Source of the DNA: a virus
Lineage: Duplodnaviria; Caudoviricetes
IMG/VR virus record: IMGVR_UViG_3300012344_000017
Location: 32,001 to 96,000 of that record
DNA: 64,000 nucleotides
Reading direction: 5' to 3' (one strand)
How positions within the stretch are numbered: the stretch's first letter is position 1; each line of letters starts with the position of its first letter. Of the stretch, positions 10,201 through 62,626 are shown piece by piece. The notes under the pieces are model-generated. The model worked only from the letters and a program-made list of their open reading frames with translations, was not told the origin of the DNA and searched no databases. The position numbers and the translations under genes were made by a program.

Positions 10201-13200
10201 GGTATCAATAAAGGCACCGAGCAATATAATGTAGCAATAGCTGATAGAGCTAATATAGAACAACAGTTGGCTGCTAATAGAAGAGCTTAGTAGGAAGCAG
10301 AGGTTAGACTACAGTAGATTTATGATCAACAAGGTTATCAAAATCAGGTGGAACAAGCCGTAAATAGACAAGAGTAGTCAAGAGACCATATGTTAGCTGC
10401 TATAAATGCTGCAACAACAAAGACTAGGGCAGTTGAGTCTTACATTAACAGAAAGGTAGAAGAGTATAAGAAGTCACTCGATACTGCGGCTCTACCAAAA
10501 GAAGAGGTAGAAAAATCTGTAACAGAATATAAGGAATCTATCAAAGATGAGGCTAACGAATACGGCGAAAGGTTTGTAGAGAACTCTCAGAGAGAAGAAC
10601 ATGCTAGACACGTAAATAACTTCTAGAGAAATTCTGAGGCTCATAATAGAATGAAAGCCTTGCTTACTCTTAGAGCTAAGATGAATTCTATTGAAGATAT
10701 TTTTAAGTTTGCTCACGATAAGCTTGGTTTAAAGACAGTTAGACCTGATGCTAAGTTATTGTCTGCTAATATAGATAAGTAGATTGCTCGTGCAAAGCAA
10801 AACTTATCTAAAGCTTATAAGAATTTCGATGAGAAGTCTACAGATGAACAGACGTTACAATTCTTGAATAGCTTTAGCGAGTCTGTTGGATTTAATGACG
10901 ACGGGATTCAAGAACTTGAGCAAGCTATGGCTATGTATACAGCTAATGAGTCGTTACTTAATTCTACATTATCTATTCATACAGAAGGTGTTACGCGTGA
11001 TGCCTATGGTAATCTCGAGTACAATCCAGACGAAATTAGATATCAAAGAAAGTAGGCTGAATTAAAGTAGAAGCTTGGTAATAAATACAAGCCAGAAGAG
11101 CATAAAAGGGCAGCTGCTAAAGATGGTTCTAAGAGCAAACTTAATGAGCGTATCACAAAGATTATTGACGCAAATAAGCAGAACGAAAACATCGACTGGA
11201 TGTTGTCTGACATATATGCAGGTGACGCTGTAACAAAGCTTACAGAGGGCTATTAGAATGATATGCTTAAAGCTGCCGAAGAAGACGTAAAAGACATCAA
11301 TGAACAAGCTAAGTAGGCTGTAGACACTACAGAAACATAGTAGAATCATACGGCTACTACAGGAGAGCTACAGAAGCATGCCGAAGAATACAGGCGTCGC
11401 AGAGATAAAGCTAGAGAACATTATAGGAAGAAACGCAAGGCTAGAAGAAATAAAGCTAGAGTGTCATTCTTCCTTGGTTTCGACGAGCTTGCCATGCAGT
11501 CTTTTGACGGTCTTATGGAGAATGCCAAAGTAGGCTTCTATAAGTTCGAGTAGCTTTATAATGATATAAAGACTATCCTCCAAGAAGAGACTGGACAAGA
11601 TGGTGGACCATCTGTGTTAGCTTTGGCTAAAGCGATGTACATTCGCCATTACCTTACATCAACACGTAAAGAAAAGGAGAATATGAATACTCCTATGGAT
11701 GTGTAGTTTTATGGTGCATAGGTTGCTACTCACGCTTCGCAGGATACATCTTTTGATGGATATAGGAGAGCTTTGAAGCAACAGCAAGATAGAGCTCTTA
11801 TTCATTGTTTTCATACAACTATTGCATACGACGACAATAATACATTACATGTATTTGAAAACATAGACGAAATAGATAGACTTGAAGAGCAATCACATTA
11901 TCCAGAGATTGAGGAGAATGTAAATATCTCTGATAAATAGTAGATTCTCGGATATTTGGCTGATAATACAGATAGATTTGGCAGTCAGGATTACTCTAAT
12001 ATTATTGATTCTATATTCTCGCAATCAAACAAAGAAGAATTATTACAAGGGTTTGCTCATTATTTAGCATCAATAGATACAGCTTACTTTAATGCTCAAT
12101 CTATAAGAGATGGTGAAACTATTAGAGAGATGGCTCAAGCTATAATGCTTGGAACAGATGATAGTTTTGCAGACAATCTATTGGATAACCCAAATGGTAT
12201 AACTGAGGCTAAACGGTATGTTAAATCTGTTAGAGACAGAATGCTTAACGGTGGTCAATACAGAGTGCTCGACACAGATATTCCTATCTATGGTTATGAC
12301 GATAAGGGTAGAGCTATACAGTCATAGGCAGATATTATACTTGTAGACAATGATGGGCAACTTCTTGTGATAGACGTAAGGTCTTCTTTTAGACCTGATT
12401 TAAAAGCTAGAATGCTCGGCAATCAAAAGGTTAATGATCGAGCTAAAGAAACGATGATCCAACATGAGTAGAGATAGCTTCAAAGATTAAATTAGATTCT
12501 TTATGATACATTTGGTTCTAATGTAGAAGGTACGTATGTAATGCCGTTCTATAATGATAGAACAGCACATCTTATTGTAGCCGAACCTGTATTTAAGGTT
12601 GAGATGCTTGATTTTAATAAACCTGTAACACCTTATTACAATAAGTCTAATGAAGATATTTCTAATGAAGTTGTTAAGCCTCTACAAGACAAAGTAAATG
12701 AATTAAAGGAAGATTATCAGTAGTTACTTGATAGTATTACAGAAGCTGGTGATAAACAATATTCTGATTCTCATGCATTTAATAATACGTACGATATATT
12801 TAAAGAAGGCTCAAATAAGGATGAATTATTGCTTCAGATAAGAGACCTCCATTCTGCCATAGAATCTATCCAGAGTTTGAAAGAAGACGCTCAGATGCGC
12901 TTAAATTAGCTATTACAACCTAAATAGCATGAGAATACAGTACTGGAGTTTTATCCAGAAGATGCATTTGATCACGTTATTGTAGATGAACAATATTAGG
13001 CTGGCCTTGATACTCTTCACGAAGTTTGTAAGAAACTTGATACGCTGTTAAGCTCTATTACGAATCTTAATATCACAACAGCAGACGAACGAGCCCAAGT
13101 TAATGAACTTATCTACTCTATATACGATGCACAAACAGCTCTTGATCAATTCTACGGTAGCGATTAGTTTAAAGTTGGCGATACTTTACCAGAACAGAAG

Positions 13201-16200
13201 CTTATAGCAGCAGCTATTAACAAACTTGTAAACAATAGAATGATGTATGGAGATGCTGCGAATAAGGCTTTACAGATGTGGTAGACTTAGTTTGCTTCTA
13301 ATATAGGCAATCCTAGCTTTACTTATTTCAATAAGATTAAATCGTTCCTCGCTACATTTGATGGTGAGTTTATGAACAGTCTTGTTGGCAATAAGAGTTT
13401 ACAAAGATTCTGGAGTACAGTAGTAAATAATTAGCTTAAGTTCTTAGCTGACAACGCAAAGAATGTATAGAAGACTAATACAGCTCTCGATGCAGCACTT
13501 ACTGATACCATTTATGACGCAGAAGACTTTATTAGGGAATACAATCAAAGATTCCCTGTGGATCCAAACGTTGACGATGTACTTGATATAAATAATGCAC
13601 AGAGCATCAACATGATCGACGATCAATGGAGAGAATTGTACAGCGATACAACTAAACACTTCCCCGCATTTAGAGCAAAACTTGACCCACATTATTTCTC
13701 TATAGCTCTTGATCCATATTTAATTTACCCAGATGCTTCTGGCAAGTCTGGTAACGCTGAGCTTGTATGGAGAAATAATGAAGTGTAGCTTAAACTTACA
13801 GACTCTAAGGGAAAGACAATCTTTATGACATTCGATCAGGGTAACGATACTGGTCCTAGAGGCGTAGACCCAGTATATTTTGCTAGAAAGAAAGCCGCAG
13901 ATGCCGTATTCGTATAGAAAGTTAAGTATATGCTTGACTTTATGAAGACGCATCCTGGATACCATATAAGCATGAAATTAAGTCGTTCTAAGGGCTCAAT
14001 TAAGAATGGTAGTGAATTGCGGCCTGTAAGTAAATTCTTATTTGCAGGAACGCTTAATCAACACGATTTGTATAACATTACATGTGATGCTGGCAATAGA
14101 ATAGGTTTTCTTAAGACCACTCAAAACGTGAATACCGGCGATGTAACGAAGATGGTGTACGGCGGCCCAGAGTTATCAACTCTAATCAACGGTTTCGATC
14201 TCGAATATGTAAAGCGTACAGCCATAACACAATCTGGTAATATTGTATACTTCTACGATACTGGTCAGGTAGAAAAAACTGTAGATAATAGATGTATTGG
14301 TACACCGTTAATACAACCTAAGTTTACAGCTGGTCAAGGTGGCTAGGCTAATAAACTTGCCGACCTTATCTGGTATAAGTGTTATCAAGGTTTGAATGAG
14401 TATCAAGGTTATTCTATAGACGACTTGCTTAAGCAGGTTCTTTATATTAAGGCTGACAATAAAGTCTTGAATGAGAAATACAACTCTATAGAAGGTCTTG
14501 TTACGTTAGATCCAGCCAATAAGAGAGTTATCATAGGTAATGTTATTTACCCTACGTAGAACCCTAATGTAGATTATGCTAACATCTACAACGCTCTATG
14601 TAATATGTATATGACGAAAGATGCTGCGTTTGTTCAACAGAACATGCAACAATATATACAATCATCACATAATAGCGTATTAACTAAGCTTAATGCACAA
14701 TATGCATCAAATCCAAATCTCGATAAAGTAGAATTACCTAACGGTCTTACATTTACTCGAGAAGACTTTACTCATGATGGCAAAGGTACCACTGGTCTTG
14801 GGTATATGCTACGTAATGGTTATTTAATGTCATATGCTGCTAAACTTGATCCACCTACAGTATATGTAGATAATGTAGAGCTCGTACAAGATCATCCAGA
14901 TGATAGTGCTCAATAGGTATCCAAAACAGTTGCTAAACAAGATATTCAAGAGCAGTAGAAGGAGATCGAAAGTTCCTTTATAGACTTGTTTTACGAACAA
15001 GATTTGTCAGAGTTTGAAGGATAGAAAGAAAAACCTTCGTTTGCTAATGCTGTTGATGAGTGGGTTAAAAAAACTACTGGTATTACTCCACAGTGGGTAG
15101 AAAGTGAAAGATTATCTGATGTAGCTTACAAAAAGAATAGCGCCGTACTTGCTAAATGTACAGACGCTGTTATCCAGATGTCTAATTCCGTTCCTTACAC
15201 CATTGGTTTCCACGAAGGATTCCATAGAGCTTTAGAATTACTTGTAGAACCATCTGTTAGAGAACAAATGTACTCAGCATACAGAAAGTCTCACCCAGAT
15301 GCTGCTACAGAAAGAGATGTAGCTGAGGGTTTGGCTGATTTATTCGTTGATTATATGCTCGGCACAAAGGATGCTAATACAATAAATAAACAAGGTTGGA
15401 TTAAGCGAAGTGTAAAGAAGGTAGCTAATAGATTAAGTATTCTGTGGCATTACAGAAATAATGCTAAAACAATCCTCACTTTATTCAATGACATTAAGTC
15501 TGGTAAATACGCAGACAAGCAAGTAAGCAAAGAACAGCGTGATAGGTTTAAGAAACTATTTGGAGAAGATCTGCACTATGAAATAAATGGTCGTAAGTTT
15601 GATCATATAGGTTCCGCAGCTGAGAAAGAGCATATGGCTAGAGCTCTTGGTTATATCATAGTAAAGTCAGCTAAAGATGCTACAGATATATATGATGCTG
15701 TACACAACTCTTCGGAACTTCCTATTAAATATATACCAATGAGAGTTATAAATAATCTTATTGGTGAACCAGGCTCCGTTAAGCCTGTTTTGAACGGACA
15801 ATATATGTCGATGAGTGCGGTTACTCCTACGCAGCAGGCGTTTAGGGAGATATTCTATGCCGAGCTTAACGATAAAGGCGAGGTTGTATTTCCTAACTTC
15901 TCTGCAATATCGAAAGAAGTATAGAAGTATCTTACTGAAATAATGGACGCTTATGATGGAAAATACAAGCATGACGATGATTCCGAAACTAGTGATCAGC
16001 AAGAGAATGATTATGGTAAATCTATTGAAAGATACGATAAGTCTTCATTTGAGTTTAGTAAGCTTGATTCTGTAAGTAAACCAGTAAAGATGTTCTTTGC
16101 TACAATACCTTACTACAAATTTGACGATAACGGTAAACTAACACTTGATACATCTAAGAATATGTACGGGGTGCCTACATTTATGCCCATTAAGTAGGTG

Positions 16201-19200
16201 TTTAATGTGGTGGTTAGTAAATTACATGACGTTAAAACGCCATTGGATTTATTAAATAGATTACAAGAGTTGTCTACGTAGAACCCTATGTATATGGCTA
16301 TATATCAAAAATACAGTGATCTATACAATTCTGTTTACACATTCAATGATGACGATTAGCTTGAAAAAATAGACTTTGACAAAGAGGCGCTTATGGTACA
16401 AATCTTTACATCCATTAAAGGTCATGAGCATAACTTTATTATCGGTAGATCTATTCGTAATAAGAATGGTGGCGTTGAGGTTAAAATATCTGATGCAAAC
16501 TTTGATAGAGACGCTAGAATGTACCCTAAACTTTGGAATTCATTCTTATCGTCTGGTCAATCAGGTTTGTTACAGAGATCAGTTGGACAGAATGGGCAAT
16601 TACTTCTTTCTACAAAGTACAATACAAAAAACACTTAGGTAGATATGCCTACAACTGTAGCTAGAAACGCCTTTAGATTCATATCTCAGTTCTTCTCAGA
16701 TTTGCAATCGTAGATATTGAATGATTCCGCTAGTGAGTTTAAAATAAACGGTAGAGTTAGAAATGCGGCATCTAATAGCGATATCGAAGTACTTAAGGAT
16801 GATATATGTAAAGAGTTCAATATGCTTGGTATTAACTTTACTAAAGAAATGCTCGATCATATGTTGTCTACAAAGTACAATGGTGTTGGTAGAGATGCCT
16901 TAAAGAAGTGGATTACATCTACCGGTGTGTCTAATATTAACAGCTTTATTGATGCCGTAGGAAAGGTTGTTCAAACTAATGGTTATACAACACAGAAAGC
17001 TGTAGACGAAATATTTAAGACTGGTTTTGTTAGTGAGCTTGGTAATTGGGCTGGAGCTTATATGAAGATTACTACAGACAAAATGTCTAATGGTATGGAT
17101 GGCACTAAGTTGTATAATGAGTCTCAAAACAACAGCATTAGTAACACTACTGAGAATCTTAATAGTCACGATAAGAATAATATGGTAGTAAAGACTATAT
17201 TGTAGTCTAGCTATAACATAATGAACAATAACGGTGTTAATATGGGTTCTATTGTTGCTAAGCAATTGTAGAATGGTGAAGATTTTAATATTAGCATTTA
17301 CACTCCTATTGGTTTTAAATCTGATAATCGTGGCGATAATGGTTCTAAATATAGTAACCTTGCAGAAGCTGAAGACTATATTAATAAGTTTGCGATGCTT
17401 CAGAATGGATATTGTATATTCCCAACGCTTGCAGATAAAGGTACATATATGGTTCTAGGTGGTATAAATATACCAGGAATGGAATTTGGTTAGGCTGAGA
17501 ATGGTGTTTATACAGTATCAGGCGCCCCAAAGATGGTATTCTTGGATAGTATACACTACTATTTGCAGCCTAGTCAGTCTGTATTAAATCAATTTATCGA
17601 CTACGCTTATACAGAACGTGAAGCTATTCTTGATTGTAGAGAACAACTTGGTTTACATGTATATAATCCTAAGGGTTTACCAGTACTGAACGACGAGGAT
17701 AAGATAATGAATTACCACATCGGTAAGAAAGGTAAGCAGCCTGGTGGTATTCAGTTTAAATCACTTACAACACTTAGAGTATACGAGGATGGTTAGATTA
17801 AGCGTTACGAGATAAGTAAGATGTCTCCAGACGAATAGCTTAAGACTCTTAATGAGCAGTTCTTTGATAAATCTAGAGAAGAACAAGAATAGATAATGTC
17901 CTTAACTCTTCAAGAGCAATATGAAAACGAAGTAGATAAAGCCGTTAGCCTTGGTATTGTTTCAAAGGACGAAAAGTTTGGTTATCTTGGGCTTAACAAT
18001 ATAAACCTCAATTAGAGCCAAATAGACGCCGTAGAACGTACTTTGTACACTTAGATGCATAAAGACCTTACGGATAAAGGAATAACGCCTAATACGCAAA
18101 ATTTGCAGCGTACGGCACATAGTATGGCTATAGCTGCTATTCTGCAGGATGCTACGAATAGAGCTATTATTTCTTCTGAGGAAAGCTTACGATTATATAT
18201 TGGTAATCCTGGTTTCTTTAAGAATGTAGAAGATATTCAAAAGCGTATTGGTGGTCTTGTGTCTACCGGTGATGATAACGTTACATCTTTACCAAACTAC
18301 GATGGTTCTGATGGAGAACTTTATAGGTGTGCTGAAATATCAGACTATGAGGTAGCTTCAAATGCTGATATTATGAGCGAACTTCAAGAAAGAATGCGCG
18401 ATGGTGAGTTAAGGGAAATCTACGGAAACCGTTACGGTTTTAATGGTGTTGATGATTTAGATATTGGTGCAGTAAGAGCTAGGCTCGTAGATGATTTTGG
18501 TGAAGATGCTGTTAAAAAGATTGAATCTAGAGCCAATAACTTCTATGAAGCTTATACTGGCGGTATCAATGTAGCAGATGGTGCATCTTATATTACAGCT
18601 GATATGTGTAAGAGAATGCTTAGAGCTAGAGGTGCATTAACAAATGATGTAGCTAAAGCTATCAATATTCTCGAAAGCTCAGACAAGTATTCTTGGATGG
18701 ATCAAAAAGATGCATACAAGCTCATCTATGATAAAGTAAATCTTGTTACAACTAAATATACTGCTTACGGATTTAGAGATCATACAACGAACGGAAAGAA
18801 GGTTTCTAACCTATCTGTGCCATACTATAACAAGTTTGCATTGTTCCCTATATTCGATTGTATAGCTACTGGTAAACTTAAGAATGTGTACGATAAGATG
18901 AAGGAGAATAAGATTGATAACCTCCTTATGACATCTGCGGTAAAAGTTGGTCTTCAAGGTCATTCTGAGTTCGATGGTGAAACCATTAGTAAACCTTTAA
19001 ATGTTTATACACAGAGACTTTCTGCGCTTCGTAGACAGCTTAATACAGACCCTGAGGAAGGTGATGTTGTAGCAGCTGGTACACAGATGATTAAAGTTTG
19101 TTTATCTAGTTTACGTCTTGATAGAATGTATGGCGATATGACTGGAGAATAGCTTAGAGATAAGCTTATGGGTTCTATTAATAAACTTTCTAAACTTGGT

Positions 19201-22200
19201 GTAGATAAGTTTAAAGATAGATTCTATTCTAATGGTATTATAGATCAGAAGAAGCTTAGCGAATATCTTATCGAACAGCTTGGTACTAGAAATGCTAATA
19301 AGAATCTTATAGATGCTCTTACTTATAATCCAGAGACAGGATCAATGAATGCACCTATTGCATCTACAGCTGACGCTAGTTGGATGGAGTCTATGCTTAT
19401 ATCTGCAGCAAATAAGGATATTATTGATATTATGACTCCTGGTAGTTCATTTATTCAGAGATCTGTATTTGCTATTGAAGGAAAGAACGGAGAAGGTTCT
19501 ATACAAGGCCAAGAGATTTATAATGGTAAAAGATTATAGATGATCAACGAAGAAGGTTCTATGGACGCCGTAATATCCATTGATTACTTCCAGGATATTC
19601 TTCCAAAGAACTTATCTTACAACGAGGCTAGACAATGGCTCTTAGATCATAATATAATCGGTGAAAATGCTACATCTAATACGATTGGTTATCGTATCCC
19701 TACACAGGCTCAGTCATCTATACATGCTTTACGTTTTGTAGATGTTGTGCCTGCTGTTAAATCTACAGTAATACTCCCAACAGAGTTTACTAAGATAACT
19801 GGTTCGGATTTTGATATAGACCACCTTTATTTGGCACGTTATAACGTCAATAATGAAGGTAAATATGAATTTGATCCCGAAAGCGCAGAAGGTTTACAGA
19901 ATAGCATTATTGAAAGTATTCTTACTGTACTTAAGGATAAAAAGTCTCTCAACATCTTATATAAGTCTATTGATAATGATACAGAGCTTGTAACAAGTAT
20001 TGCAGACGAGATTCCAGAACAAGGTAACACAAAGAGTGTAGCGTATAACTTTGGCACATTACATGAGTAGGTTACTCGTAAGAATGACTACATTACAGGT
20101 AAAACCGGTATTGGCCCATTTGCGCTGAATGTAACAAACCATATTCTTACAACATTGTATGGTGTTAAGTTTAAAGAATCTAGCTTTACAAAGGTAACAG
20201 GTATAACTGGTTTTGATTAGATTCTTGACGAAGATAACAATCAGATTTCATCTTGGTTATCAGCATTTATTAACGCACACGTAGATATTGTGAAAGACCC
20301 ATATATCTCCAAGCTTAATGTAAACGGCTTTACGTACAATATGATTAACTTACTTGCTAGAAACGGTAAGGGCAAACAAGGACTTTATTTCTTGTGTCAA
20401 CCTATTATTAGAGAGATGGCTAAAGCTGATATTGACGCCAAGTCTTAGTTCACTAGAGACCCCAAGGTGTTTAAATCTGCTTTCGAGATGAGAGATAAGA
20501 GGCTAGCTGAGATATTCCCTAGTGTAACTGGTAAAACAATAGACGACGATTATATAAAAGGCGCTACAGAGCCAAATAAATCTAAAGGTGAGCCTGCTAG
20601 ACGAGCAGAAATAGTAAACTCTGTACTTAATAATATGGATATGCTTTAGAAGATAGCCAAGAATCCAGATTTGGTCTACGCTTAGACAGAAGAAGGAGAA
20701 AGAGCTAGGGTTTTCCAGGTTAACTGCTATATAGCCTGGAAATGTCTTGAGAAGTATTCTAATGCATTAAATAGTTTGGTGTAGTATACTAAGATTGATA
20801 CTCGTAAACAAGGTAAGAATTTCCTTGAAATGCAAGCTTACCTTAGGGGGTACGAGAATCTTACAAACCCAGAAACTGATTAGCTGTTTGATATGGATTC
20901 TATTAACAACCTTATATACGGTACATGGATTGAGTAGAAGACAAGAGATGCTATTCAAGAGCCTATGAGAGTTATGTCTGGGCAATCATTCCAGGGAACT
21001 CCGTAGTTTATAGAACAACTTGTCAACCTGTCTGATGATTTTAAGTATAAAACAAATGATAGAGAGTCTGATTTGCTTAGAAACGCTAAGACCATGAAGA
21101 AGATATCGCAGGCTGCCAGTAGTTAGATTAAGGCTAGATACGCTCTTAGATTAGCCAAATCGTTAGGTATTGATGTTAAGGGTTTATTTGACGGTAACGC
21201 TACGATATTTGATAGGCTTAATTCTATACAGGCTTGCATTCAGCGCGATGCATATGGTCTTGGTAGATTAAAGGATAACTACTTATTATCTCATCTAGCT
21301 CCATACATTTAGGATTAGGATGTATTTGTAGCAGGTAAGATTACAAATAAGCCTAAGTTTATTAGCGTCATAAATAGCATGGATGAGAGTAAGATGTCTT
21401 CTGATATGTTTATAGAGTCTTGGGAAGAACTTCTTAACGACCCGCAAGCTAATGTAAGAAGATTTGCAAACGATCTCATATTATATGCAATACTTACATC
21501 TGGTGATACAAAGGGCTTTAATAAGATTGCAAAGTATATTCCTATGAGCTGGCTCGAGGCTAGGCATGATGAGAGTATAGTACCTTTCTCTGATTACATT
21601 AGAGAGCAACTTGAGGCTCCAGAAATTGATCATGATCTTATAGCTCAAAATAACTATATGGATAGCGATTTAATTAGTAGGGCTACATTTAAAGATTACT
21701 ATTACGCTTTTAATGCTCAGTATTCTCCTGCCGTAATAATTAGTAAGGATTCTCATGAACATGATGCTTTGTATGTATCAGTTCGAAACGATGGAACAAC
21801 ATACAGTGATCCAACATCTTATACTTTGTATAAAAAAGTTGGAGAAGCTATGGTTAATGGATCCAAACGTGCAGTATATGCGTTATTACCTAAGAGAGGT
21901 TGGTCTGACAGAGACGGTCTTAATATATATGAGGCTGGAGATATAAATCTCAACGTAAACGGTATTCCGATGAGTCAAGAGATTATTGGGAACCAGCTTA
22001 ATAAACTTATGATTTATCTTAGCCAAATGAAGCCAAACATTACTGATTAGTAGCGCAACAATTGGATGACATGGTTCAACCAAATGTACTATAACGCTAA
22101 TTCAGAATATCCTACAATATCTAAAGCTGTAGAACAATAGAATACATAGAGTACTGTTGGTGAAGTAAAACTTGATGGTAAAGGTCCTTCTGGACAGACT

Positions 22201-22863
22201 ATCTATATAAGCAAACAGCTATTCTATAAAGATCAGCCTCAGCAACACACTAATGTACAATATGTGTTTACAGATAACGCTCAGGCTTATGCTAAAGCAC
22301 AGGGATTATCTATGCAAGGATTCGCTAATTAGAACCCAGTATTAAATGTAAGCTCTGGCGCTACTGGCACAAACCAAGCTTGTATTAGAACTGGTAGTGA
22401 TGGTAAGGTTACTCCTAATGCATTTGGTCTTGTAGTAAAGGTTAATCAACAAGATGCTTCTGGTAAATGGCTTGCTAAAGACGGCTGTTTCTAGGATAAT
22501 CAAGGCGATATAATGGCGTTTAAGTCGTGGGTAAATCATATGCTGTCTAGAATAGATAAGAATAAACCAATAGTATTCCCTGCCTCTATAGCTCTTGGTA
22601 AAGCAGCCCTTCCTAGAGAAGCAGCAGAATGGCTTAGTGTACAATTGCTGTCTAGATTTAACATTAAGTCTACAGTTCAAGAAAACACTAGAGCTGGTTA
22701 TACTGGTTATGGATTATCTATAGAAGGTGTTGTAGACGATGATTACGCTAATACGTTAATTAAAGAAGAACAATAGAAGCAAGCTCTATCACAACTTAGG
22801 TTAACTAAAGAAGATATTGAGGAAGCTGAAAGAATTAGAAATCATTGCAAAGGAGGTAAATAA
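7261..22863 (+). CDS. Giant virion-associated DNA-dependent RNA polymerase polyprotein (~5200 aa, TAG=Gln)
   Basis: 24 track fragments from 7420 to 22513 are in frame 1 and end in TAG. The gaps I read contain no TAA/TGA. Motifs: HEGFH zincin (~15211), PTLADKG, GYRIPTQ, catalytic GSDFDID (DFDID at 19807-19821), GKTGIGPFALN, NAHVDIVKDP. Confidence 0.9.
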
Positions 22864-43432: not shown

Positions 43433-44038
43433 CTATGCTGTTACATTAACCTTAACGGATACCTCAGCCTGTGGCTTAGACTTCTCCTTCTCGTCGAAGT
43501 ATGTAGCTACCTTGTTTTCGTTTGCGCTAATGGCAGAAACACACTGAGCTTTTGCCTTGTTACACATCTCGATAATTGCATCGAGACGGGCAATCTCTGC
43601 ACGATTGAGCTGGTTCATCAACAAGCCCATCTTCTTAGGATCAGAGAAGACCATCTTCTTCTCAGGGTTCTTCATAGCCTCACGTACAGCCTCTTCAGTT
43701 GTCTTACCGAAGCTGCTAAGTGTTGCTGCTGGAACCTCGATCTCAAGATCTGTCTCTGGATTAATCTTAAGCACAACTTCACCTGCGATATTCTCAGTCA
43801 CTCGCATGTCTGTCACTGTTGTAGAGAAGACACTGAAGCGACGAGGAGAACGATTGAGACATAAGTCTGCATCTCCACTTGCATGAATGTTAGCTATGAT
43901 CTTCTCATAGTCCTGGTTGAATACACGGGTCTGAGGAGTAAATACATCCTGACCGAAAAGATTACCACCGATCTGACTCAGTGGGGTACGATTTGCTTTA
44001 ACTGTTGTTTCCACGATGTTTACATTAACGTTTTCCAT
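43433..44038 (-). CDS. Hypothetical protein (TAG used as stop)
   Basis: 201 aa; the TAG stop lies 4 nt before the next ATG. Confidence 0.75.
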   Translation of the reverse strand: MENVNVNIVETTVKANRTPLSQIGGNLFGQDVFTPQTRVFNQDYEKIIANIHASGDADLCLNRSPRRFSVFSTTVTDMRVTENIAGEVVLKINPETDLEIEVPAATLSSFGKTTEEAVREAMKNPEKKMVFSDPKKMGLLMNQLNRAEIARLDAIIEMCNKAKAQCVSAISANENKVATYFDEKEKSKPQAEVSVKVNVTA

Positions 44039-44044
44039 ATTAAA

Positions 44045-46185
44045 TCATATCCTTTTTGATATCGTTATTGATTAACTAACGATATGATTATTAACTATGA
44101 CGTATTCTTTGGCCACGTCTTTGCCGTTGTTATTGATTAAGCAACGCTGATACGTAGATACTCGATGCTTGGTATTGTTTTCACAAAGACAGTTCTACTA
44201 TTGTAGACGCTTTAATACAGACTTAGTTACACTCTTCCTATCCCAACAATTGGAGGATAGGCTTGTAACGGGAACTACATACGTATGATGTAGTTAGCAT
44301 TTACTGGATTCATCCAGGCCCATCGTCTAAAGCTTTGAATGCTGTCTTGACATAATCAAATGTCATATGTATGTTTGTTTTGCAGTACTTCTGCTTATAG
44401 ATTTTTCTAACTATAATATCCCTAACCTCGTTGGCAGAATTTCCTTTCGGACTAGTGTTCGTAGAAATTAGAGAATATAAACCAACAAAAAGAGATGTAG
44501 TATTTTCGGTCGTATTTCCCTTACTATACAACGAATATAAACTACAGGTTGTCGATTAAACGCAGATTTCCTCAGCTAATAAGTTTTAAAAGCGCCTAAC
44601 TTATCGAAATGACTCCTCTCTGCGGTACTCGGCTTTTGACATGTACCCAGTGGTTGGTTATCGGAATGTCTCAGGATCAAACCCTTCTCAGACTTTACGG
44701 CTTTTTACATCTTTGCTGATGTTTGTAATTTTATTGTACCGGTATTACTACCTCCTATTTATAGTGCACGAATATTAGGAATTCAACCCATACATTTCAT
44801 CTTGTCACCCACTTATAAACGTAATATATATGTATAGAGACAGTATACACATATAATATACACAGTCGTTTTTACAACATTGAATATAAGCTGCCCATCA
44901 ATTTCTTGTATTGCTTTGAACCTTTGTGTTTACATATACTGTTGCGCAGTATATTTTAGCATGGTTTAGCATATCGGTTGGCACTCGAACTTTCCAGGAG
45001 GGGCCTTCAATACAACAGAAGCGTAGTTCCCATCTGGAGGACATCAATTTTTATTAAACATGTTTGTTTTGGATACTACTAAATTTCCATAATTTATATC
45101 TCTATGTATATACTATATGCATACATAATATGCCAGTTTACTACCCTGTAGAGACTATGTAATATTATATAATAACATACAAATAAACTATTAGTTTAGT
45201 TTCTCTCTGGATCAAGTGGAGGTCAAATGGCTCTGGATGAGCATATCTCGAATCGACTTAAACCTAATTCTTTTACCATTTCTTATTCTAGGATAGTTCT
45301 CCATCAATTTTCTTTGGCTATAACGAAGCCATCGATCATAACCTCGTAAGTTATTTAGTTCTTACGGGATACATACTTTTCATCATCGCTTACCATGATT
45401 ATTATATGTTGAAATAGACTTTCACCGCGGTCTTCATCCGCGTACGATACTTCTAATAAAGCTTCGATTAAGGGGTTGCCCTACCCTTGCGCTTGTTTTA
45501 CTTTTATATACCGCATAAATAAGCAAAGCCTGGCGGTCACAATCAGACACTTCTACCCCATCCCTGGCACCCCTTCAACGGAGTTGTACTGAATCGAACA
45601 GTAAGGTTTTGGTATAGTCAGCAAACTCATTTAGTTTACTCTGTGTGGTATTATCCCCACAGTATAGATGCATTACTTCGGCCCTTGTATTACCCTTGGA
45701 CAGGTAAAAGCACTACCTACAGCTATTGATACTACTATTCGCTTTGGAGTCCTCGGTTCTTCCAGTATCATGCACCATACCATGTATGCAATTCTGTTCA
45801 CCTACTGGGGACGCAAATAGTTGTTTCTCGTGTAACGTTCGTGTATATTTAGTATCATCACATACAATTCCGATACGGTTCATTATGCCCTTCTTGGGAC
45901 TTATGCGTTTTTGAACTTTATAACTTCACCCTGCTTATCTCCAATACGGTTCTCATAAGTCCAGTTATATATTCCTAGGAGTTGATACAACGCTTCTCCT
46001 ACTTGTAGCAAACTTTTCAATGCTTGATACATTTCATCCTACCTTTTGAGTAATCTTGCTCTGCAAGACAGAGTTAACATATTCTCGGATCAAGTTCTTT
46101 TCGTACACAGGCTAATGAGACCTGCTATATGTACTTAGCTGAGTTAAGTATGGTAGGTTCTTATGTTTACTACCATACCTCAGAG
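44045..46185 (-). ncRNA. Candidate large structured non-coding RNA (~2.1 kb)
   Basis: No credible ORF; many inverted repeats, repeated short motifs and a T-loop module at 45581-45628. Strand inferred from flanking genes and T-loop orientation. Confidence 0.6.
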
Positions 46186-46186
46186 G

Positions 46187-46543
46187 TTATTCACTTACTT
46201 TGTGCACATTGTAAGCGTAATCTACACTGTCTCCCTCAACAGGTGTAGCAATGTAAAGAAGTGGTAAAGACGAGATACCATTCTTCTCTACAATTTTAGT
46301 TTTAATTACAGTCTTTACAGTCTGCGATTGATGGTTACAAGGTACAGGTACTGTGTCATGTACTGTATCAGGATTAGCTCTATTCATATTATTGTTGAGT
46401 ATTGAACTCAACGGTAGTTGCGGAACGGTAGATGCTGCTACCGTTTGCAGATTCGTTGGAGGCATATAACCTGCCATGTTAGCTATATTGGAACCAACAA
46501 TGACAAACGCTATCGCCAACAATGATGTAACTAAATTTTTCAT
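46187..46543 (-). CDS. Hypothetical secreted/membrane protein
   Basis: Signal-peptide-like N-terminus MKNLVTSLLAIAFVIVGS. Confidence 0.7.
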   Translation of the reverse strand: MKNLVTSLLAIAFVIVGSNIANMAGYMPPTNLQTVAASTVPQLPLSSILNNNMNRANPDTVHDTVPVPCNHQSQTVKTVIKTKIVEKNGISSLPLLYIATPVEGDSVDYAYNVHKVSE

Positions 46544-46646
46544 ACTTTGATAGTTATTACTTAGTTTTGTTCACTTTGCCACTTGATATCAAGTACTTTT
46601 TTTACTCGACCAACTAGTCGTGAACCAGCTTTCTTAATTGGTCGAA

Positions 46647-48182
46647 TTATTTTTTTTCGACCTTAGACTTAGCCTTGCCCTTAGCAGCTTTCTTGGCATC
46701 CTCCTTAGCCTTCTTCTCGGCAGCCTTCTTAGCCTCCTCAGCAGCGGCATCGTTCTCAGCCTTGATCTCCTCATCAGTCTTGAACTCAAGATCAATGATG
46801 TTGCTCTTAGCAACTCCGGCGATAGGGTCTGAAGGATTACGGAAAAGATTAGAGATTACACCAGCATACTGAGTACAGTTAGCAAGCATAGAATCAATCT
46901 TAACCTTAGCCATCATTTCAGGTGTTACGTCGTTATAGAATGCGCGTTTGATAGAGATGACAGTCTTCTTAGCGAAATTATCACCAGCCTTGAACTTTTC
47001 GCTCAAGTTAGAAACAAAGTCAGAAGGAGCATTGGAAATGCAAGCGAGTACACGCTCAGCATACTTAATGTTCTTCTCACCAGTCTCAATGTGAGGCTTA
47101 ACGCGATCTTTCTCAGGAAGCTTATTTTCCTCATCAATGAGCATCTTACCCTTAGCGTATACCTCATCAGCAGCGATTGACACGATGCACTTAATTACAT
47201 CAGCAATCTCATCTTCAGAATACTTGCACTTACCGGTCTTCTTATCTGTACTATGTGCATAAAGCTCACAGAATGCAGATACTGGAGATCCGGACGCAGC
47301 GGTAACGTTGAATAAGTGAGCGCCAAGACCGTACACAAGTGTGCCGGTACGACCTGTAAGGCTAACAATCTTGCGAAAGGTTTCAGCCTTAGTCATATTC
47401 TTAATAGACTCAAGTTCGGCTTTTGCGTTATCCAAAGCTTGTTCGGCCTTAGCCTTGTATTCCTTATCACTAGTATTCTTCAGGGTTTCTTCTGCAGCAT
47501 CAATCTTACGATTAGCTGAGACCTGAGCCCATGCACTATAGAAAGAAATACACTTACTAACGCTATCCATCAGCTTAGAATCATTGTTAAGAGCTAAGAA
47601 GCTAGAAAGAGCTGTCTTCAATTCCTCCTCGTCCTTGATCTTTGTAGGATCATAGATTTTGCCAGCTGTTTTATTCAACGTCTCAGCATCCTTTGTGAGA
47701 CTATCCTTCGTCTCTTCGGATACCTCAACTGCGGTTGCAGGTACAGACACGGCCTCGTCACCATTTTCAGCAGGAGATGCTGTAAGAAGCTTAGTTTCGT
47801 CAAGAGTAATACCAAGCTCTGTACAAGCTTCCTTGAATTCTGGAAGTGCAGCCTTACGCAGTGTAATAGCGAAGTCGCTATTACCAGAATTAATCTCATT
47901 AGCGTAGACTGTAACCATACCGAGGAAGTTAATATGATTCATTTTGTCAACACTCTCAGGAGAGAGTCCTGTATGTTCAGCTGCGTTAGGATCAAGGAAA
48001 CAGCGCTCGTGAACCATCTTCAAGAGATCTACTTGATGATTACGATCCATTGAGCTTTTACCCAATGTTGTGCTCATCATTGCATCTAGAGCAGACTGGT
48101 TTGCATTTACCTGAACCTGCATATTCTCTTGATTATTTACCTGTGCAGGCTTAACCTGCGCATTTTTATTCTTTTTAGCCAT
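46647..48182 (-). CDS. Hypothetical protein (511 aa, K/A-rich tail)
   Basis: Long ORF with a TTATCAAAATG leader. Confidence 0.8.
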   Translation of the reverse strand: MAKKNKNAQVKPAQVNNQENMQVQVNANQSALDAMMSTTLGKSSMDRNHQVDLLKMVHERCFLDPNAAEHTGLSPESVDKMNHINFLGMVTVYANEINSGNSDFAITLRKAALPEFKEACTELGITLDETKLLTASPAENGDEAVSVPATAVEVSEETKDSLTKDAETLNKTAGKIYDPTKIKDEEELKTALSSFLALNNDSKLMDSVSKCISFYSAWAQVSANRKIDAAEETLKNTSDKEYKAKAEQALDNAKAELESIKNMTKAETFRKIVSLTGRTGTLVYGLGAHLFNVTAASGSPVSAFCELYAHSTDKKTGKCKYSEDEIADVIKCIVSIAADEVYAKGKMLIDEENKLPEKDRVKPHIETGEKNIKYAERVLACISNAPSDFVSNLSEKFKAGDNFAKKTVISIKRAFYNDVTPEMMAKVKIDSMLANCTQYAGVISNLFRNPSDPIAGVAKSNIIDLEFKTDEEIKAENDAAAEEAKKAAEKKAKEDAKKAAKGKAKSKVEKK

Positions 48183-48661: not shown

Positions 48662-49219
48662 TTAAACGTTTAAATTATTTTTAATTTTCCTACGAGTGCG
48701 ACTTAACGCAGCTTTTATAGTGCCAGTAGGAGTTTTTAGCACTTTACTAATCTCATCAACTGTTAGATCTTCTACATAAAACAAATTAAAGATTTTCTGT
48801 GTCTTCTTTGGGAGCTTTTTAAACTCCTTTAAAAGAGATTCGTACTCAAGAAGATTGACAAGATCTCCTTCTTCTGAAGAATTAGTTAATTCCTCTGGTA
48901 GTCGGCCAGTGTTATCTCCTAATTCCATAGACCTTTCTTTTATTTTGCGTAGATAATCTATAGCTGTTCGATTAGCTATAATTCTCAGCCATCCGCCAAA
49001 AGACGAATAATCTGTGAATGTCGAGAGTTTCTGATGAACCTTTAGAAATACTACATTAGTAAGATCTTTGGCTTCATCCATGTCGTTCACGTAACTAAAG
49101 AGCACGTTGTCAACGAACTCTTTGTAACGGTTAAACAGTTTGTTAAACGCAAGTTCATTTCCCTTTTGCGCTTCTTTTATGGTCTCAATCTCAGATTGGG
49201 TGATACGTTGATACTCCAT
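48662..49219 (-). CDS. ECF-type sigma-70 factor
   Basis: Region 2: AKDLTNVVFLKV...FGGWLRIIANRTAIDYLRK. Region 4: LTVDEISKVLKTPTGTIKAALSRTR. Confidence 0.92.
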   Translation of the reverse strand: MEYQRITQSEIETIKEAQKGNELAFNKLFNRYKEFVDNVLFSYVNDMDEAKDLTNVVFLKVHQKLSTFTDYSSFGGWLRIIANRTAIDYLRKIKERSMELGDNTGRLPEELTNSSEEGDLVNLLEYESLLKEFKKLPKKTQKIFNLFYVEDLTVDEISKVLKTPTGTIKAALSRTRRKIKNNLNV

Positions 49220-49262
49220 AATTGGAGCGTAGGGGAGATTCCTCTCGCCCTACGCCTTGTCT

Positions 49263-49667
49263 CTAGAATGGCAAATCGTATGCGAACTTTTGCTGAAACA
49301 CACTTTGTACATTATGTACAAAGTTATATTGGAGTTGGATTTTTAAATTATCCCCGCCTGTTTTGAGGTCTGTTTTATTTAAGACACCCGTTGCTATACG
49401 TAGGCGAACTCCAACTGTTCTCATTTCAAGAGGTTCGAGGACGATTCTGTTCATAATCCATTTTCCGATTTCTCTTAACTTTGGATTTAAACATACTTCA
49501 TCTAAACACTTGTCATCTAGGTAATCGCCATGACAAAAGATGTGAGGTTCGTTCCAGATTTCCAAATCGGAATTCTTTAACTTGTTTATAACCTCCTCAA
49601 TTGTATCGGCGGAATCGTGACAGGATAATTTTAACCTGTTTCTTAGTATTAAAGGGAAATACTCCAT
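49263..49667 (-). CDS. Hypothetical protein ending DLPF (TAG stop)
   Basis: 134 aa; an SSB-like DLPF terminus directly before TAG. Confidence 0.7.
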   Translation of the reverse strand: MEYFPLILRNRLKLSCHDSADTIEEVINKLKNSDLEIWNEPHIFCHGDYLDDKCLDEVCLNPKLREIGKWIMNRIVLEPLEMRTVGVRLRIATGVLNKTDLKTGGDNLKIQLQYNFVHNVQSVFQQKFAYDLPF

Positions 49668-50178: not shown

Positions 50179-50241
50179 TGGAGAAGAGCAAGGAATCGAA
50201 CCTTGCGAATCTAGCAAAGCTAGTATATACCAGATCTTCTC
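50179..50241 (-). ncRNA. Mini tRNA-like element with encoded CCA, directly 3' of the tmRNA coding piece
   Basis: GAGAAGA TCTGG TATATA CTAGC-TTT-GCTAG ATTCG CAAGG-TTCGATT-CCTTG C TCTTCT CCA. Confidence 0.6.
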
Positions 50242-50249
50242 TCTCCACT

Positions 50250-50530
50250 TAGGTAGGAAACACCTAGACTATACTTACGCTACGCAAGTATAGTCTACAA
50301 TGTTGTTTACATTGTCGTTTGTATTTAGTATAGTGCTTAATGTATTTACTTCCTCTGTCTGTCAAAAGCCAAAACACGCCCGTATAGGTAGTTTTACAAC
50401 ATGCCCAGGTTGCCCAAACGGAGTCTAAACGTAGAAGAGATACCTCTAATAGACTTATCGTAGGGGGAAGAAGAACGTGGACGTGAGGGGAATCGAACCC
50501 CTGTCCAAACAGATTAACTCATACACACTT
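50250..50530 (-). ncRNA. ssrA: Circularly permuted (two-piece) tmRNA: acceptor piece ~50530-50478, coding piece 50381-~50250
   Basis: GGAC AGGGG-TTCGATT-CCCCT CACGTCC A lies upstream of GGGCGTG TTTTGG CTTTTGAC. The 7-bp acceptor stem has G3.U70 and A73. Tag ORF 50322-50275 (TNDNVNNIVDYTCVA*) has its stop in a long hairpin. Outer ends are approximate. Confidence 0.85.
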
Positions 50531-50697
50531 TACTTTCTTTGTAAATGTTCTAATGATCAGTTAGAACATTTGATTTAAGCCATATAGGAGTCGTTCTAAG
50601 ACACTTTTGACAGCATCATGGGTAATTACTCCACTTATCTCCTAGAATGTCTTAGAACGCATTTAAACATGACTAGAAATATATATAGTGACCCTCA

Positions 50698-56715: not shown

Positions 56716-57315
56716 AATTCTGCAGTTTTATGTTATTTACGCTATTTATTAATGAGGCATAAACAAAAGAAGATGAGTGAAAGGTTCGATAGACAGGAGA
56801 GAGATAGATTCTCACCCTTATGTCTTCCAATAAGCCATTCTCAACTTAATTTGTTTAATCTCGTCTTTTAGGAGAATTTGTTTATTAGTTGCTAAGCAAG
56901 AATGCCAAGTAAGCAAGGTTGTGTATTGATGGAGGGTGGAAGTGTCCTGCATAATAGTCGTATTTTCTTTCTACCTTCTTGTAGGTATGGAGTATATTTA
57001 TATACGAAATACCTTTCTTAGTTCTTTCTTTTCAGAGAGAAACACAGAAAGAGAATATATAAGAGAAAGATATAAAGAGAGAGTTCATCTCTCTTATTAC
57101 CGTTTTTAAGGAGCAGATGTTTATTAGATGCTCAGCAGCAGCGTGAATACACCCACGTACAAGCAAGAATGTGAATGTTGCCAGCAGTGAGTGTACTAAA
57201 ATATGCTCTCAGACGCATTTTAAGGCACCTACAAGCGCGTATCTCAATCCTACTGAACAATTACCCAGCGTGTACATTTTAATGCCTTAGAGAGCAAATT
57301 AGACACAAGGCCCGC

Positions 57316-57555
57316 TTATTTAGCGAGCTTTGCATCCAACTGTGATGATACGTAAAGGTAAGAACTCATCTGGTCCCCGCCATCCATGTCATAAACATTA
57401 TTGCGATCCATAATAGAATCAGCAAGCCGTCCTTTAAGGATAGCAAGTTTGTATGTTGCTCTGTATCTGGATTTGCATCCATGCCAACCACACTGAACGC
57501 CAAGAACAAATGATACAACACACACTAAAGTTGAGATAATGATAGTCTTTTTCAT
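57316..57555 (-). CDS. Membrane-anchored hypothetical protein
   Basis: 79 aa with an N-terminal TM helix. Confidence 0.65.
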   Translation of the reverse strand: MKKTIIISTLVCVVSFVLGVQCGWHGCKSRYRATYKLAILKGRLADSIMDRNNVYDMDGGDQMSSYLYVSSQLDAKLAK

Positions 57556-57658
57556 ATTGATTATGTTTTAATTATTAATATTAACAAACTTTCTAAGTTT
57601 GCTGTGTCGTTTGATAGATGAAGTTTTTTCTTAGTTGCTAAGAGGATAAGACCCCAGA

Positions 57659-57832
57659 TTACTCTGGGATCATTACCTGCTCTTGGTAGAAACGGACATT
57701 GATGTTCTTGCATGTAGCAAGCCAAGGACCAAAGTCCTTCATTAAGTCCTCAAATGAGTCGTAAGGCTTGCTGTGTTGCCAATAGTTCCTGTTTGTCTCT
57801 GCTGCGATTTTATAAACTGTCTTTGTATTCAT
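57659..57832 (-). CDS. Small early protein (57 aa), below the track cutoff
   Basis: MNTKTVYKIAAETNRNYWQHSKPYDSFEDLMKDFGPW...; follows the motif copy at 57881 with an AT-rich leader. Confidence 0.65.
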   Translation of the reverse strand: MNTKTVYKIAAETNRNYWQHSKPYDSFEDLMKDFGPWLATCKNINVRFYQEQVMIPE

Positions 57833-57909
57833 AATTATAAGTGTTAAACTGTTAATATTATCGCAAGAGTGAAGAATGTGTTTATTAGTTGTTAAGGGAG
57901 AAAGCAGAG

Positions 57910-58104
57910 CTATTTAGCCCTGCAATCCCAGATTATATACCCAATGACAGATAGGAAGATGATAAACATCACATTGAGTAGAATGCGACCAAAGACCCCC
58001 AATAGCATAGTTGGAGAAGTATATGATACATATGAGCCCCAAGCAAACAAGCACTCAAGCGCAATAAGGAGAACGATAACGATAATGCATGAAATCTTAG
58101 TCAT
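57910..58104 (-). CDS. Small two-TM membrane protein (TAG stop)
   Basis: 64 aa; first gene after the motif copy at 58151. Confidence 0.65.
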   Translation of the reverse strand: MTKISCIIVIVLLIALECLFAWGSYVSYTSPTMLLGVFGRILLNVMFIIFLSVIGYIIWDCRAK

Positions 58105-58330
58105 AGTTGTAAATGTTTAAATGTTAATATCATAAGAAAGATGAAGATGATTTATTAGATGCTCAGCAGAACAAAGGCGGGGGTATCCCGGATCGCGTAC
58201 TTGGGGAGGGGGTCGCTATTATACTGTTTCACGTTTTTATACATGCATTACCACTTTAAAATTAGAAAAAATATTTTTGTTCTCCCCTTTATACGCTCAC
58301 TGTAACTTTTAAATTATAAAAAATAAAACA

Positions 58331-58358
58331 AAAAAAAGCCGAGGCGTTAACCTCGGCT
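58331..58358 (-). terminator. Intrinsic terminator
   Basis: AGCCGAGG-ttaacg-CCTCGGCT followed by a T run. Confidence 0.85.
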
Positions 58359-58514
58359 AGCTTCTTTAAATTTTCTAAAGAAATCATTTATTTCTCTCAT
58401 GTATATATGATTATCTCTTTCATACATAATAGAATCTATCCATTCTCCTGTACTATCTTTAAATCTTCCAACTCCAAGATAATTATAACAGTGTCCTTTG
58501 TACTCGTATACCAT
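58347..58514 (-). CDS. DUF1653-like small protein (55 aa)
   Basis: MVYEYKGHCYNYLGVGRFKDSTGEWIDSIMYERDNHIYMREINDFFRKF... Confidence 0.55.
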   Translation of the reverse strand: MVYEYKGHCYNYLGVGRFKDSTGEWIDSIMYERDNHIYMREINDFFRKFKEASRG

Positions 58515-58515
58515 T

Positions 58516-58788
58516 TTAGAACCTCCACCATCTAGTTGTTTCTTTCTTTAACTCTTCGAGACACGCGTCATATTTCTCTTTCCAATACTTCTCCATGCCT
58601 CTACTCCATTCTAAATCATATTTTAGTTGCGCTATAACTGATTGTAGCGATTCTATTACGCTACCATTATTTGTGTCAGATTTGCTATTCTGCACAAGCT
58701 TCTCGTAGTCCTTCTTATCAAGGATAACATAGTCCTTAAGCTGTCTAATTTGCTGTACTAAATCTGTTTCTTTCGTCTCCATCTCCAA
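58516..58788 (-). CDS. Coiled-coil hypothetical protein
   Basis: 90 aa ending RWWRF. Confidence 0.65.
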   Translation of the reverse strand: MEMETKETDLVQQIRQLKDYVILDKKDYEKLVQNSKSDTNNGSVIESLQSVIAQLKYDLEWSRGMEKYWKEKYDACLEELKKETTRWWRF

Positions 58789-62458: not shown

Positions 62459-62529
62459 CGCGAGATGATGAAAAGGTATCATACGAGGCTCATAACCTCG
62501 ATTTGCTAGTTCGACTCTAGCTCTCGCAA
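62459..62529 (+). tRNA. tRNA-Met (CAT), initiator-like
   Basis: C1.A72 mismatch, anticodon arm CGAGG-CTCATAA-CCTCG, T arm GCTAG-TTCGACT-CTAGC. Confidence 0.88.
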
Positions 62530-62535
62530 CTATAT

Positions 62536-62607
62536 TGCCCTATCGTATATTGACTATTACCTCTGTCTCTAAAACAGAAGAAGTGGGTTTGATTCCTACT
62601 AGGGCGA
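62536..62607 (+). tRNA. Amber suppressor tRNA (anticodon CTA), presumably Gln
   Basis: Acceptor TGCCCTA/TAGGGCG, anticodon arm TCTGT-CTCTAAA-ACAGA (CTA at 62569-62571), T arm GTGGG-TTTGATT-CCTAC. Confidence 0.92.
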
Positions 62608-62626
62608 CTAATAAATAATAATAAAT

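Follow-up and report, generated by a model that had tools for sequence, protein, structure and literature searches.

A conserved 2.1-kb structured element of Suoliviridae crAss-like phages, a candidate giant non-coding RNA

What occupies a gap of about 2.1 kb between two small genes of a crAss-like phage? The gap, positions 44039-46186 on the minus strand, lies in a 64,000-nucleotide (nt) stretch of the IMG/VR record IMGVR_UViG_3300012344_000017 (positions 32,001 to 96,000), the whole of which was analyzed and is called the window here. The window comes from the genome of a crAss-like phage; by blastn, its nearest public records belong to the subfamily Oafivirinae of the Suoliviridae, and the phage was assigned to the delta group of crAss-like phages. 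A first-pass annotation, made from the sequence alone, had described 44045-46185 as the longest stretch of the window free of open reading frames (ORFs) and had interpreted it as either a single large structured RNA or several RNA modules in an array. The description was confirmed with slightly wider bounds, namely the start codon of a gene for a protein of 201 amino acids (aa) and the stop codon of a gene for a 118-aa protein, and the interpretation is supported by the comparative evidence presented below. The gap is filled by a family-wide, strongly constrained structured nucleic acid, and it very probably encodes a structured RNA.

Blastn detected the stretch in seven phage records from five Oafivirinae genera, where the gap always measures 2.0-2.2 kb and is always flanked by homologues of the same two genes. 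A syntenic gap was found in four subfamilies of the Suoliviridae (Oafivirinae, Loutivirinae, Boorivirinae, and Bearivirinae), the order being a sigma-factor gene, a small gene, a gene of ~500 aa, a gene of ~120-170 aa, the gap of 2.0-2.5 kb, and a gene of ~200 aa. The gaps of Loutivirinae (cr4_1, cr56_1, cr53_1, cr113_1), Boorivirinae (cr1_1), and Bearivirinae (cr6_1) have sizes of 2080-2481 nt and contain the same 5′ core. A search for relatives with a single flanking protein returned just one close relative, and IMG/VR loci were instead fetched with two DNA patterns drawn from invariant blocks of the element. In 106 of the 108 fetched loci with both flanks the ORF-free gap spans 1974-2367 nt, in the remaining two ~1592 nt, and its size is kept even where only ~170 nt are still recognizable by sequence. 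With an nhmmer profile, the element was recognized in 164 loci, either full-length or colinear. An alignment of eight gaps revealed invariant blocks between variable stretches with visible compensatory hairpins. The 5′ core at 46033-46093 is the only part that blastn or nhmmer still recognizes in all four subfamilies, and besides this core no part is as widely conserved as the last ~50 nt.

Ten matches in a bacterial genome collection (L119-L128) were crAss-like phage contigs or fragments thereof, seven of them ~100 kb in size, and a bacterial homologue of the element was not present among these ten. The metagenome-assembled genomes (MAGs) containing them were labeled Gastranaerophilaceae, Lachnospiraceae, Bacilli, Sphaerochaeta, Intestinibacter, Bacteroidaceae, and Segatella copri. 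The occurrence of phage contigs in such unrelated MAGs is likely a binning contamination and not evidence for the host. A separate observation concerns locus L005, whose 201-aa protein is 100% identical to that of the window, yet whose element is only ~91% identical. The differences and one insertion cluster in three short modules (45000-45100, 45500-45600, and 45900-46000), which look like peripheral hairpins that were swapped or resized.

No ORF of more than 110 aa is present in 44039-46186 under code 11, with TAG read as Gln, under code 4 (TGA read as Trp), or with TAA read as Gln. Open frames do occur in the gaps of relatives, but their place and phase differ from one relative to the next and they are broken in many. 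A conserved code-15 ORF, which the first-pass annotation had named as a finding that would speak against an RNA, was therefore not obtained. In an alignment of 13 close relatives, the period-3 power of substitutions in the gap was 0.5-1.4 times the median (0.7-1.4 times when the gap was divided into quarters), compared to 50-, 8-, and 43-fold in three flanking coding stretches. In the same alignment, mean variability was 0.13-0.19 in the gap and 0.27-0.31 in the genes. The identity of the 201-aa protein drops to 28-53% in genomes whose element retains 70-83% DNA identity. Six-frame tblastn comparisons between gaps were also considered as a source of coding evidence and were discarded, because the matches occurred in all six frames and reflected DNA similarity only. 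Public records contain several annotations inside the element: the hypothetical proteins cr7_1 gp52 (L002:4312-4794) and Bohxovirus ECCNAKDA_00150 (L004:3270-3776), twelve tiny ORFs of Dulem virus 42 (L118:6858-8866), and cr113_1 gp20 (L220:4445-4882). These coding sequence (CDS) calls follow non-conserved frames and are probably spurious.

The decisive evidence for structure comes from covariation. Lineage 1 was represented by 30 sequences less than 96% identical to each other, for which an RNAalifold consensus of the minus strand was calculated. It contains 331 pairs in ~65 helices, with 155 pairs showing at least two pair types that differ on both sides. Over the whole element, both sides were changed in 197 of the 331 pairs compared to 131 ± 5.7 after shuffling, with a covariation score of 0.378 versus 0.175, and the three thirds of the element all behaved alike. 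In the 5′ third (30 sequences), the share of paired cells was 95.3% and in shuffles 80.2%; 44 pairs were changed on both sides versus 28.3 ± 2.5 (reached in 0/500 shuffles), corresponding to 296 both-side-changed cells versus 78.8 ± 8.5. The score of this third was 0.465 compared to 0.182 after shuffling and 0.06-0.10 with slid partners. Lineage 2, a Loutivirinae-type group of 13 representatives from 42 loci, was aligned separately. Here, both sides were changed in 146 of 398 pairs versus 81 ± 4.7 in shuffles, and the score was 0.283 versus 0.14, with slid partners giving 0.055-0.07. A lack of covariation among relatives had likewise been listed beforehand as an argument against an RNA; what we observed was very strong covariation in two independent lineages.

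Several features point to the strand from which such an RNA would be read. The consensus energy of the sense (minus) strand was lower than that of the other strand both in lineage 1 (-391 versus -336 kcal/mol) and in lineage 2 (-430 versus -387 kcal/mol). In lineage 1, the helices predicted on both strands contain 277 G-U wobble pairs in sense orientation and 175 in the opposite one, and several near-invariant U-G pairs would be C-A mismatches if read from the other strand. Judged by these sequence properties, such an RNA would almost certainly derive from the gene-sense strand. As to expression, the phage itself was present in no sequencing run, none of which contained more than 13% of the words of the stretch; contigs of relatives (80-99% alike) were found in four metatranscriptome runs from four studies. 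One of these contigs, 2308 nt in length, runs colinearly from the 201-aa gene into ~2 kb of the element. These contigs are compatible with transcription, although they are not proof of it. In two runs the depth looked higher over the element, which we did not count as evidence, since contig depth cannot rank genes.

The 3′ end of the element connects it to the downstream gene. An inner hairpin (44063-44081) with the invariant loop AUCAA is enclosed by an outer helix, in which 44089-44081 pairs with 44051-44043. The latter segment starts in the conserved sequence AAAAAGGA, directly upstream of the ATG at 44038-44036. Among 48 distinct sequences of the two lineages, 8 of the 9 pairs of the outer helix were changed on both sides, the covariation score was 0.373 versus 0.160 in shuffles (0/500) and 0.05-0.16 with slid partners, and permutation of the partners agreed with this result. 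According to this comparative evidence, a conserved, closed helix covers the translation start region of the downstream gene. Since the 3′ helix covaries with that start region, the element appears linked to translation of the downstream gene and to the sense transcript. An alternative pairing that extends the inner hairpin and would free the start region scored 0.172 versus 0.136 in shuffles, and a slide of -2 gave 0.149. In the genome of the window and in Burzaovirus-like relatives only, a second copy of the 3′ hairpin with the loop UUAAUCAAUAAC lies 65 nt upstream (44120-44146 and 44055-44081, minus strand).

For a comparison with known RNA families, Rfam 15 was searched by cmscan with the whole window at gathering score, with positions 43500-46700 at E-values up to 10, and with the loci of 14 diverse relatives at gathering score. 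Within this scope, no Rfam family at all matched the gap, the models of GOLLD (RF01998), ROOL (RF03087), group I and group II introns, RNase P, and ribosomal RNA (rRNA) included, in agreement with the earlier statement that no group I, group II, or RNase P core was recognizable. As a positive control, the search of the relatives detected a genuine group I intron outside the gap (L115:1964-2253, 75.4 bits). Transfer RNAs (tRNAs) and permuted transfer-messenger RNA (tmRNA) were also detected elsewhere in these loci. The absence of Rfam matches shows that the element is not a member of GOLLD, ROOL, the group I/II introns, RNase P, or rRNA, and it belongs to a new family. Our literature searches found no published description of the element, and a paper on crAss-like phage genomics mentions no non-coding region (PMC7886860). 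The same cmscan revealed RAGATH-9 (L115:489-650, L116:1074-1231, L117:344-516, L162:558-733) and RAGATH-20 (L116:1878-1975) in Loutivirinae relatives, where these RNAs and the group I intron are located upstream of the sigma-factor gene; none of them was found in the window.

The individual parts of the element are listed in Table 1. The loop of the 5′-most hairpin, AGUAAACAUAAGAACC, is kept among close relatives. With respect to the motifs proposed from the single sequence, the hairpins ATATACTG/CAGTATAT and GTATGGTAG/CTACCATAC and that with the GATAC loop are kept in relatives and covary, the reported T-loop module corresponds to the T-arm-like hairpin with its five covarying pairs, and the threefold repeat CATCAATTT is real. 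Other motifs proved to be properties of the window rather than of the family. CCTATCC/GGATAGG is present in the window sequence but not kept in the family consensus fold, and the same holds true for CTCGTAAG/CTTACGGG, although this pair covaries in close relatives. GGACTTATG/CATAAGTCC is present as well, but its pairing is not conserved, and relatives keep two local hairpins instead. All three copies of CTC(N)GGATCAA exist in the window, of which only the copy at 46085-46094 is family-wide.

Table 1. Features of the structured element, in 5′ to 3′ order on the minus strand, and its flanking genes.
Feature	Position	Strand	Observations
Upstream gene	46187-46543	-	118 aa, without a known family; invariably adjoins the element on its 5′ side
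Whole conserved structured element, candidate giant non-coding RNA	44039-46186	-	2148 nt; occupies the full intergenic space
5′-most hairpin GTATGGTAG/CTACCATAC	46148-46178	-	9 pairs, 7 compensatory; ~10 nt past the upstream stop codon
Hairpin with near-invariant loop GGUCUCAUUAGCC, closed by GUAC/GUAC	46103-46134	-	6 pairs (95.9% paired), of which 4 with changes on both sides
Most conserved 5′ core, ACUUGAUCCGAGAAUAUGUUA-(covarying hairpin 46055-46077)-CAAAAGGUAGGAUGA	46033-46093	-	Hairpin: 4/4 pairs changed on both sides
GATAC-loop hairpin	45976-46001	-	7 bp, 4 covarying
Hairpin with invariant loop UGAGAACCGUcUGG and freely varying stem	45934-45959	-	4/4 pairs changed on both sides; 5/5 covarying in the full-element consensus
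T-arm-like hairpin, 5-bp stem and 7-nt loop UUCGAUU (UACUG-UUCGAUU-CAGUA)	45587-45603	-	5/5 pairs changed on both sides
Conserved block GACCGCCAGGCUUU / AUGCGGUAUAUAAAAGUAAAA with long covarying hairpin and GGG..CCC hairpin	45470-45530	-	Helices of the consensus fold
Hairpin ATATACTG/CAGTATAT, also written CAGUAUAU/AUAUACUG	44934-44954	-	8 pairs, 7 covarying
10-bp hairpin with conserved loop CUGUCUC	44827-44853	-	10 pairs, 8 covarying, 94% canonical
Invariant block GUGGGUGACAAG ... UUCGUGCACU with nearly invariant helix	44763-44809	-	Served as search pattern
3′-terminal module, inner hairpin and outer helix	44039-44089	-	Covariation over two lineages
Downstream gene	43433-44038	-	201 aa, without a known family; invariably adjoins the element on its 3′ side; start region paired into the last helix of the element

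Based on these results, we consider it likely that the element is one giant (~2.1 kb) folded non-coding RNA (ncRNA) that is co-transcribed in the operon and whose 3′ helix gates downstream translation. The RNA would be read from the minus strand within an operon extending from the sigma-factor gene to the DNA polymerase gene, both its transcription and its strand being deduced rather than measured. It would fold into ~45-65 helices, most of them local and the T-loop arm among them, whose loops and junctions are invariant, and its peripheral hairpins would vary in length like expansion segments. In the last helix, a segment of the RNA is predicted to pair with the nucleotides that immediately precede the downstream start codon. 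As this helix covers the start region, the folded, bound, or processed state of the RNA would decide on translation of the downstream replication-module genes. This gating step, taken by itself and read from sequence, is a possibility that we put forward with reserve. By analogy to the proposals made for GOLLD and ROOL, the RNA body would probably also act as a stable particle, composed of RNA only or together with the two ever-present flanking proteins. That the RNA is one molecule rather than several is our inference, as is any activity in trans. Only tentatively do we suggest the most far-reaching version, in which a single ~2.1-kb RNA machine, the largest structured viral RNA that is neither ribosomal nor an intron, would be universal and essential in the Suoliviridae, with the particle, alone or with the two flanking proteins, acting as a catalyst or scaffold during phage replication or the takeover of the host and the 3′ helix timing the translation of replication genes.

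A number of observations weigh against the giant folded RNA and its proposed functions. The long-range helices, among them 46093-46085 with ~45560, 45874-45868 with 44666-44660, and 45530-45525 with 44704-44699, are mostly invariant, with 7 of 24 pairs changed on both sides, and because they carry so little covariation a single global fold is not demonstrated. Folding of the element of the window as a single sequence gave modest z-scores of -1.9 and -2.2 relative to shuffles, so the single sequence is suggestive but not decisive, and the comparative evidence decides. The G-U asymmetry between the strands is weak in lineage 2 (69 versus 58). The metatranscriptome contigs are assemblies that stem from relatives, do not allow strand, ends, or level to be read, and might include DNA carry-over. 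A scan for sigma-70-type promoters gave no more sites than expected by chance, the Bacteroidota-type promoter pattern TTTG..TAnnTTTG had zero matches in the window, and a recognizable terminator was not found. Because the pairing that would open the start region is weakly supported, the data speak for the closed helix only, and a switch between the two states goes a step further. Finally, comparison of the flanking proteins with PHROGs and Pfam gave no significant match and thus no functional clue, and the ESM Atlas contained nothing usable. The AlphaFold model of the 201-aa protein (pLDDT 45.8) was too poor to serve as a search query.

Two alternatives accept a structured RNA and differ in what it is. 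The element might be a purely cis-acting giant leader, i.e., a 5′ untranslated region of the 201-aa gene and the replication genes without a separate RNA function. Its constant position relative to the 201-aa gene, the covarying helix with the start region at its end, and the fact that it fills the intergenic space, leaving no room for a promoter or terminator of its own, are in line with such a leader. Contact with the start region is limited, however, to the last ~50 nt, and the element is more conserved than the gene it should regulate; moreover, no cis-regulatory leader is known to us that approaches 2 kb and contains conserved helices by the dozen along with invariant loops. On balance, we regard a mere leader as unlikely. 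Quite unlikely, in our view, is also that several independent small or medium-sized RNAs are cut from the operon transcript instead of one 2.1-kb molecule. Such an array would explain why nearly all well-supported helices are local hairpins while long-range pairs covary little and why differences between close relatives cluster in discrete modules, and the T-arm-like hairpin could possibly be recognized by tRNA-processing enzymes of the host. It would not explain why the total length of ~2.1 kb is held even past the limit of blastn recognition, why the conserved blocks are colinear in all lineages, or why invariant segments ~800 nt apart are complementary (ACUUGAUCC with GGGAU..GGGU), and the metatranscriptome contig colinear over ~2 kb also argues for one molecule.

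The other alternatives assign the stretch to a different class altogether. An element that acts at the DNA level, for instance as an origin of replication or as a site of packaging or recombination, and forms its hairpins in single-stranded DNA would fit the location in the replication gene block, and covariation alone cannot separate RNA from single-stranded DNA. We nevertheless consider it very improbable: the element contains no iterons or tandem repeats and shows no turn of the GC skew, the G-U pairs favor one strand, folded RNA typically has such features as the T-loop arm and the invariant hairpin loops, a translation start region is paired into the last helix, and relatives occur in RNA libraries. 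An ORF-less self-splicing intron, nested introns, or another mobile ribozyme between or within genes has to be considered because delta-group crAss-like phages are rich in group I introns (PMC7886860), one of which was detected elsewhere in a relative, as mentioned above. No group I or group II model matched the gap of the window (E-values up to 10) or, at gathering score, the gaps of the 14 relatives, in a search that did find this genuine intron nearby. Furthermore, the upstream gene has its own stop codon and the downstream gene its own ATG and conserved start region, so that the flanks do not form one frame, and its presence at one constant site in all genomes examined is not what a mobile element would show. 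An intron is thus extremely improbable. Genes in decay, or a gene that uses an unusual code or frameshifts, could be suspected from the plus-strand frames of 150-220 codons in some relatives, some of them annotated as CDS. These frames differ in place and phase and are broken in many relatives, the gap has no period-3 substitution pattern, and decay is ruled out because the stretch is more conserved than real genes; the chance that this explanation holds is negligible.

The element is situated inside a long minus-strand block that leads from a phage sigma-factor gene (48662-49321) to the DNA polymerase region, the latter being placed from the annotation in relatives. A plus-strand block (1-29231) contains giant late genes with dense in-frame TAG codons, 88 of them in the 5200-aa ORF at 7261-22863 (plus strand); such codons are rare in the minus-strand block holding the element. 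A tRNA-Met and a suppressor tRNA with CUA anticodon adjoin each other at 62459-62608 on the plus strand, the suppressor tRNA itself occupying 62536-62608. The phage also possesses a permuted, two-piece tmRNA at 50184-50567 (minus strand; Rfam tmRNA_permuted, 56.2 bits), a gene (50275-50528) separate from the element, for which ARAGORN predicted the tag peptide DNVNNIVDYTCVA. The tmRNA_permuted family was also detected in Loutivirinae relatives (L162:2443-2698, L117:1975-2210). Another stretch poor in ORFs, ~1.9 kb long and located at 56.7-58.6 kb (56716-58594), contains only ORFs of at most 80 aa, is situated near a strand switch of the gene blocks, and had no Rfam match at E-values up to 0.01.

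Large ornate RNAs are a rare class, with OLE, GOLLD, and ROOL as examples, and each of them has opened questions on what RNA does without protein. The candidate described here is ~2.5 times longer than the largest known ornate phage RNA and a fixed feature of the examined Suoliviridae, a family that is among the most abundant viruses, and is the most numerous crAss-like family, in the human gut. For that reason, the RNA may be among the more common large RNAs of gut samples. Since the stretch appears in public records either blank or occupied by small, spurious ORFs, its annotation should be corrected. Size, invariant loops, and hundreds of natural variants make the element a good subject for covariation-guided modeling, chemical probing, and cryo-electron microscopy (cryo-EM). 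The 3′ helix over the start of the next gene offers one concrete, testable function and is the sole mechanistic handle so far.

Several known systems invite comparison with the element. The phage T4 gene 32 and gene 43 mRNA operators are translational operators, and with such operators and with riboswitch platforms the element shares a conserved hairpin beside a helix that occludes a downstream start region; in the element, however, this module makes up only the last ~50 nt of a conserved fold of 2.1 kb. Group I and group II introns are likewise large structured RNAs common in phages, including delta-group crAss-like phages, and also use T-loop and tetraloop-type modules. In contrast to them, the element has neither a match to a catalytic core nor an intron-encoded protein, its flanking ORFs are separate, and its occurrence is universal and fixed instead of sporadic. 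The rRNAs, RNase P RNA, and tmRNA, whose models do not match the element, resemble it in having a conserved core, peripheral hairpins of variable length, and T-loop modules. The closest likeness is to GOLLD and ROOL, large ornate RNAs that are often carried by phages or prophages and have been studied by cryo-EM (PMC12286853). Like these, the element is phage-borne, ORF-free, and very large, an RNA candidate with many covarying helices and invariant loops. It differs from them by its size (~2.1 kb compared to ~0.8 and ~0.6 kb, i.e., ~2.5-3.5 times larger), by its occurrence in Crassvirales infecting Bacteroidota-type hosts, by its fixed operon position that is not beside tRNA genes, and by a 3′ end paired to the start region of the next gene. 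What it has in common with large ornate ncRNAs in general is the absence of a conserved ORF, a non-coding substitution pattern, and supported covariation over many helices.

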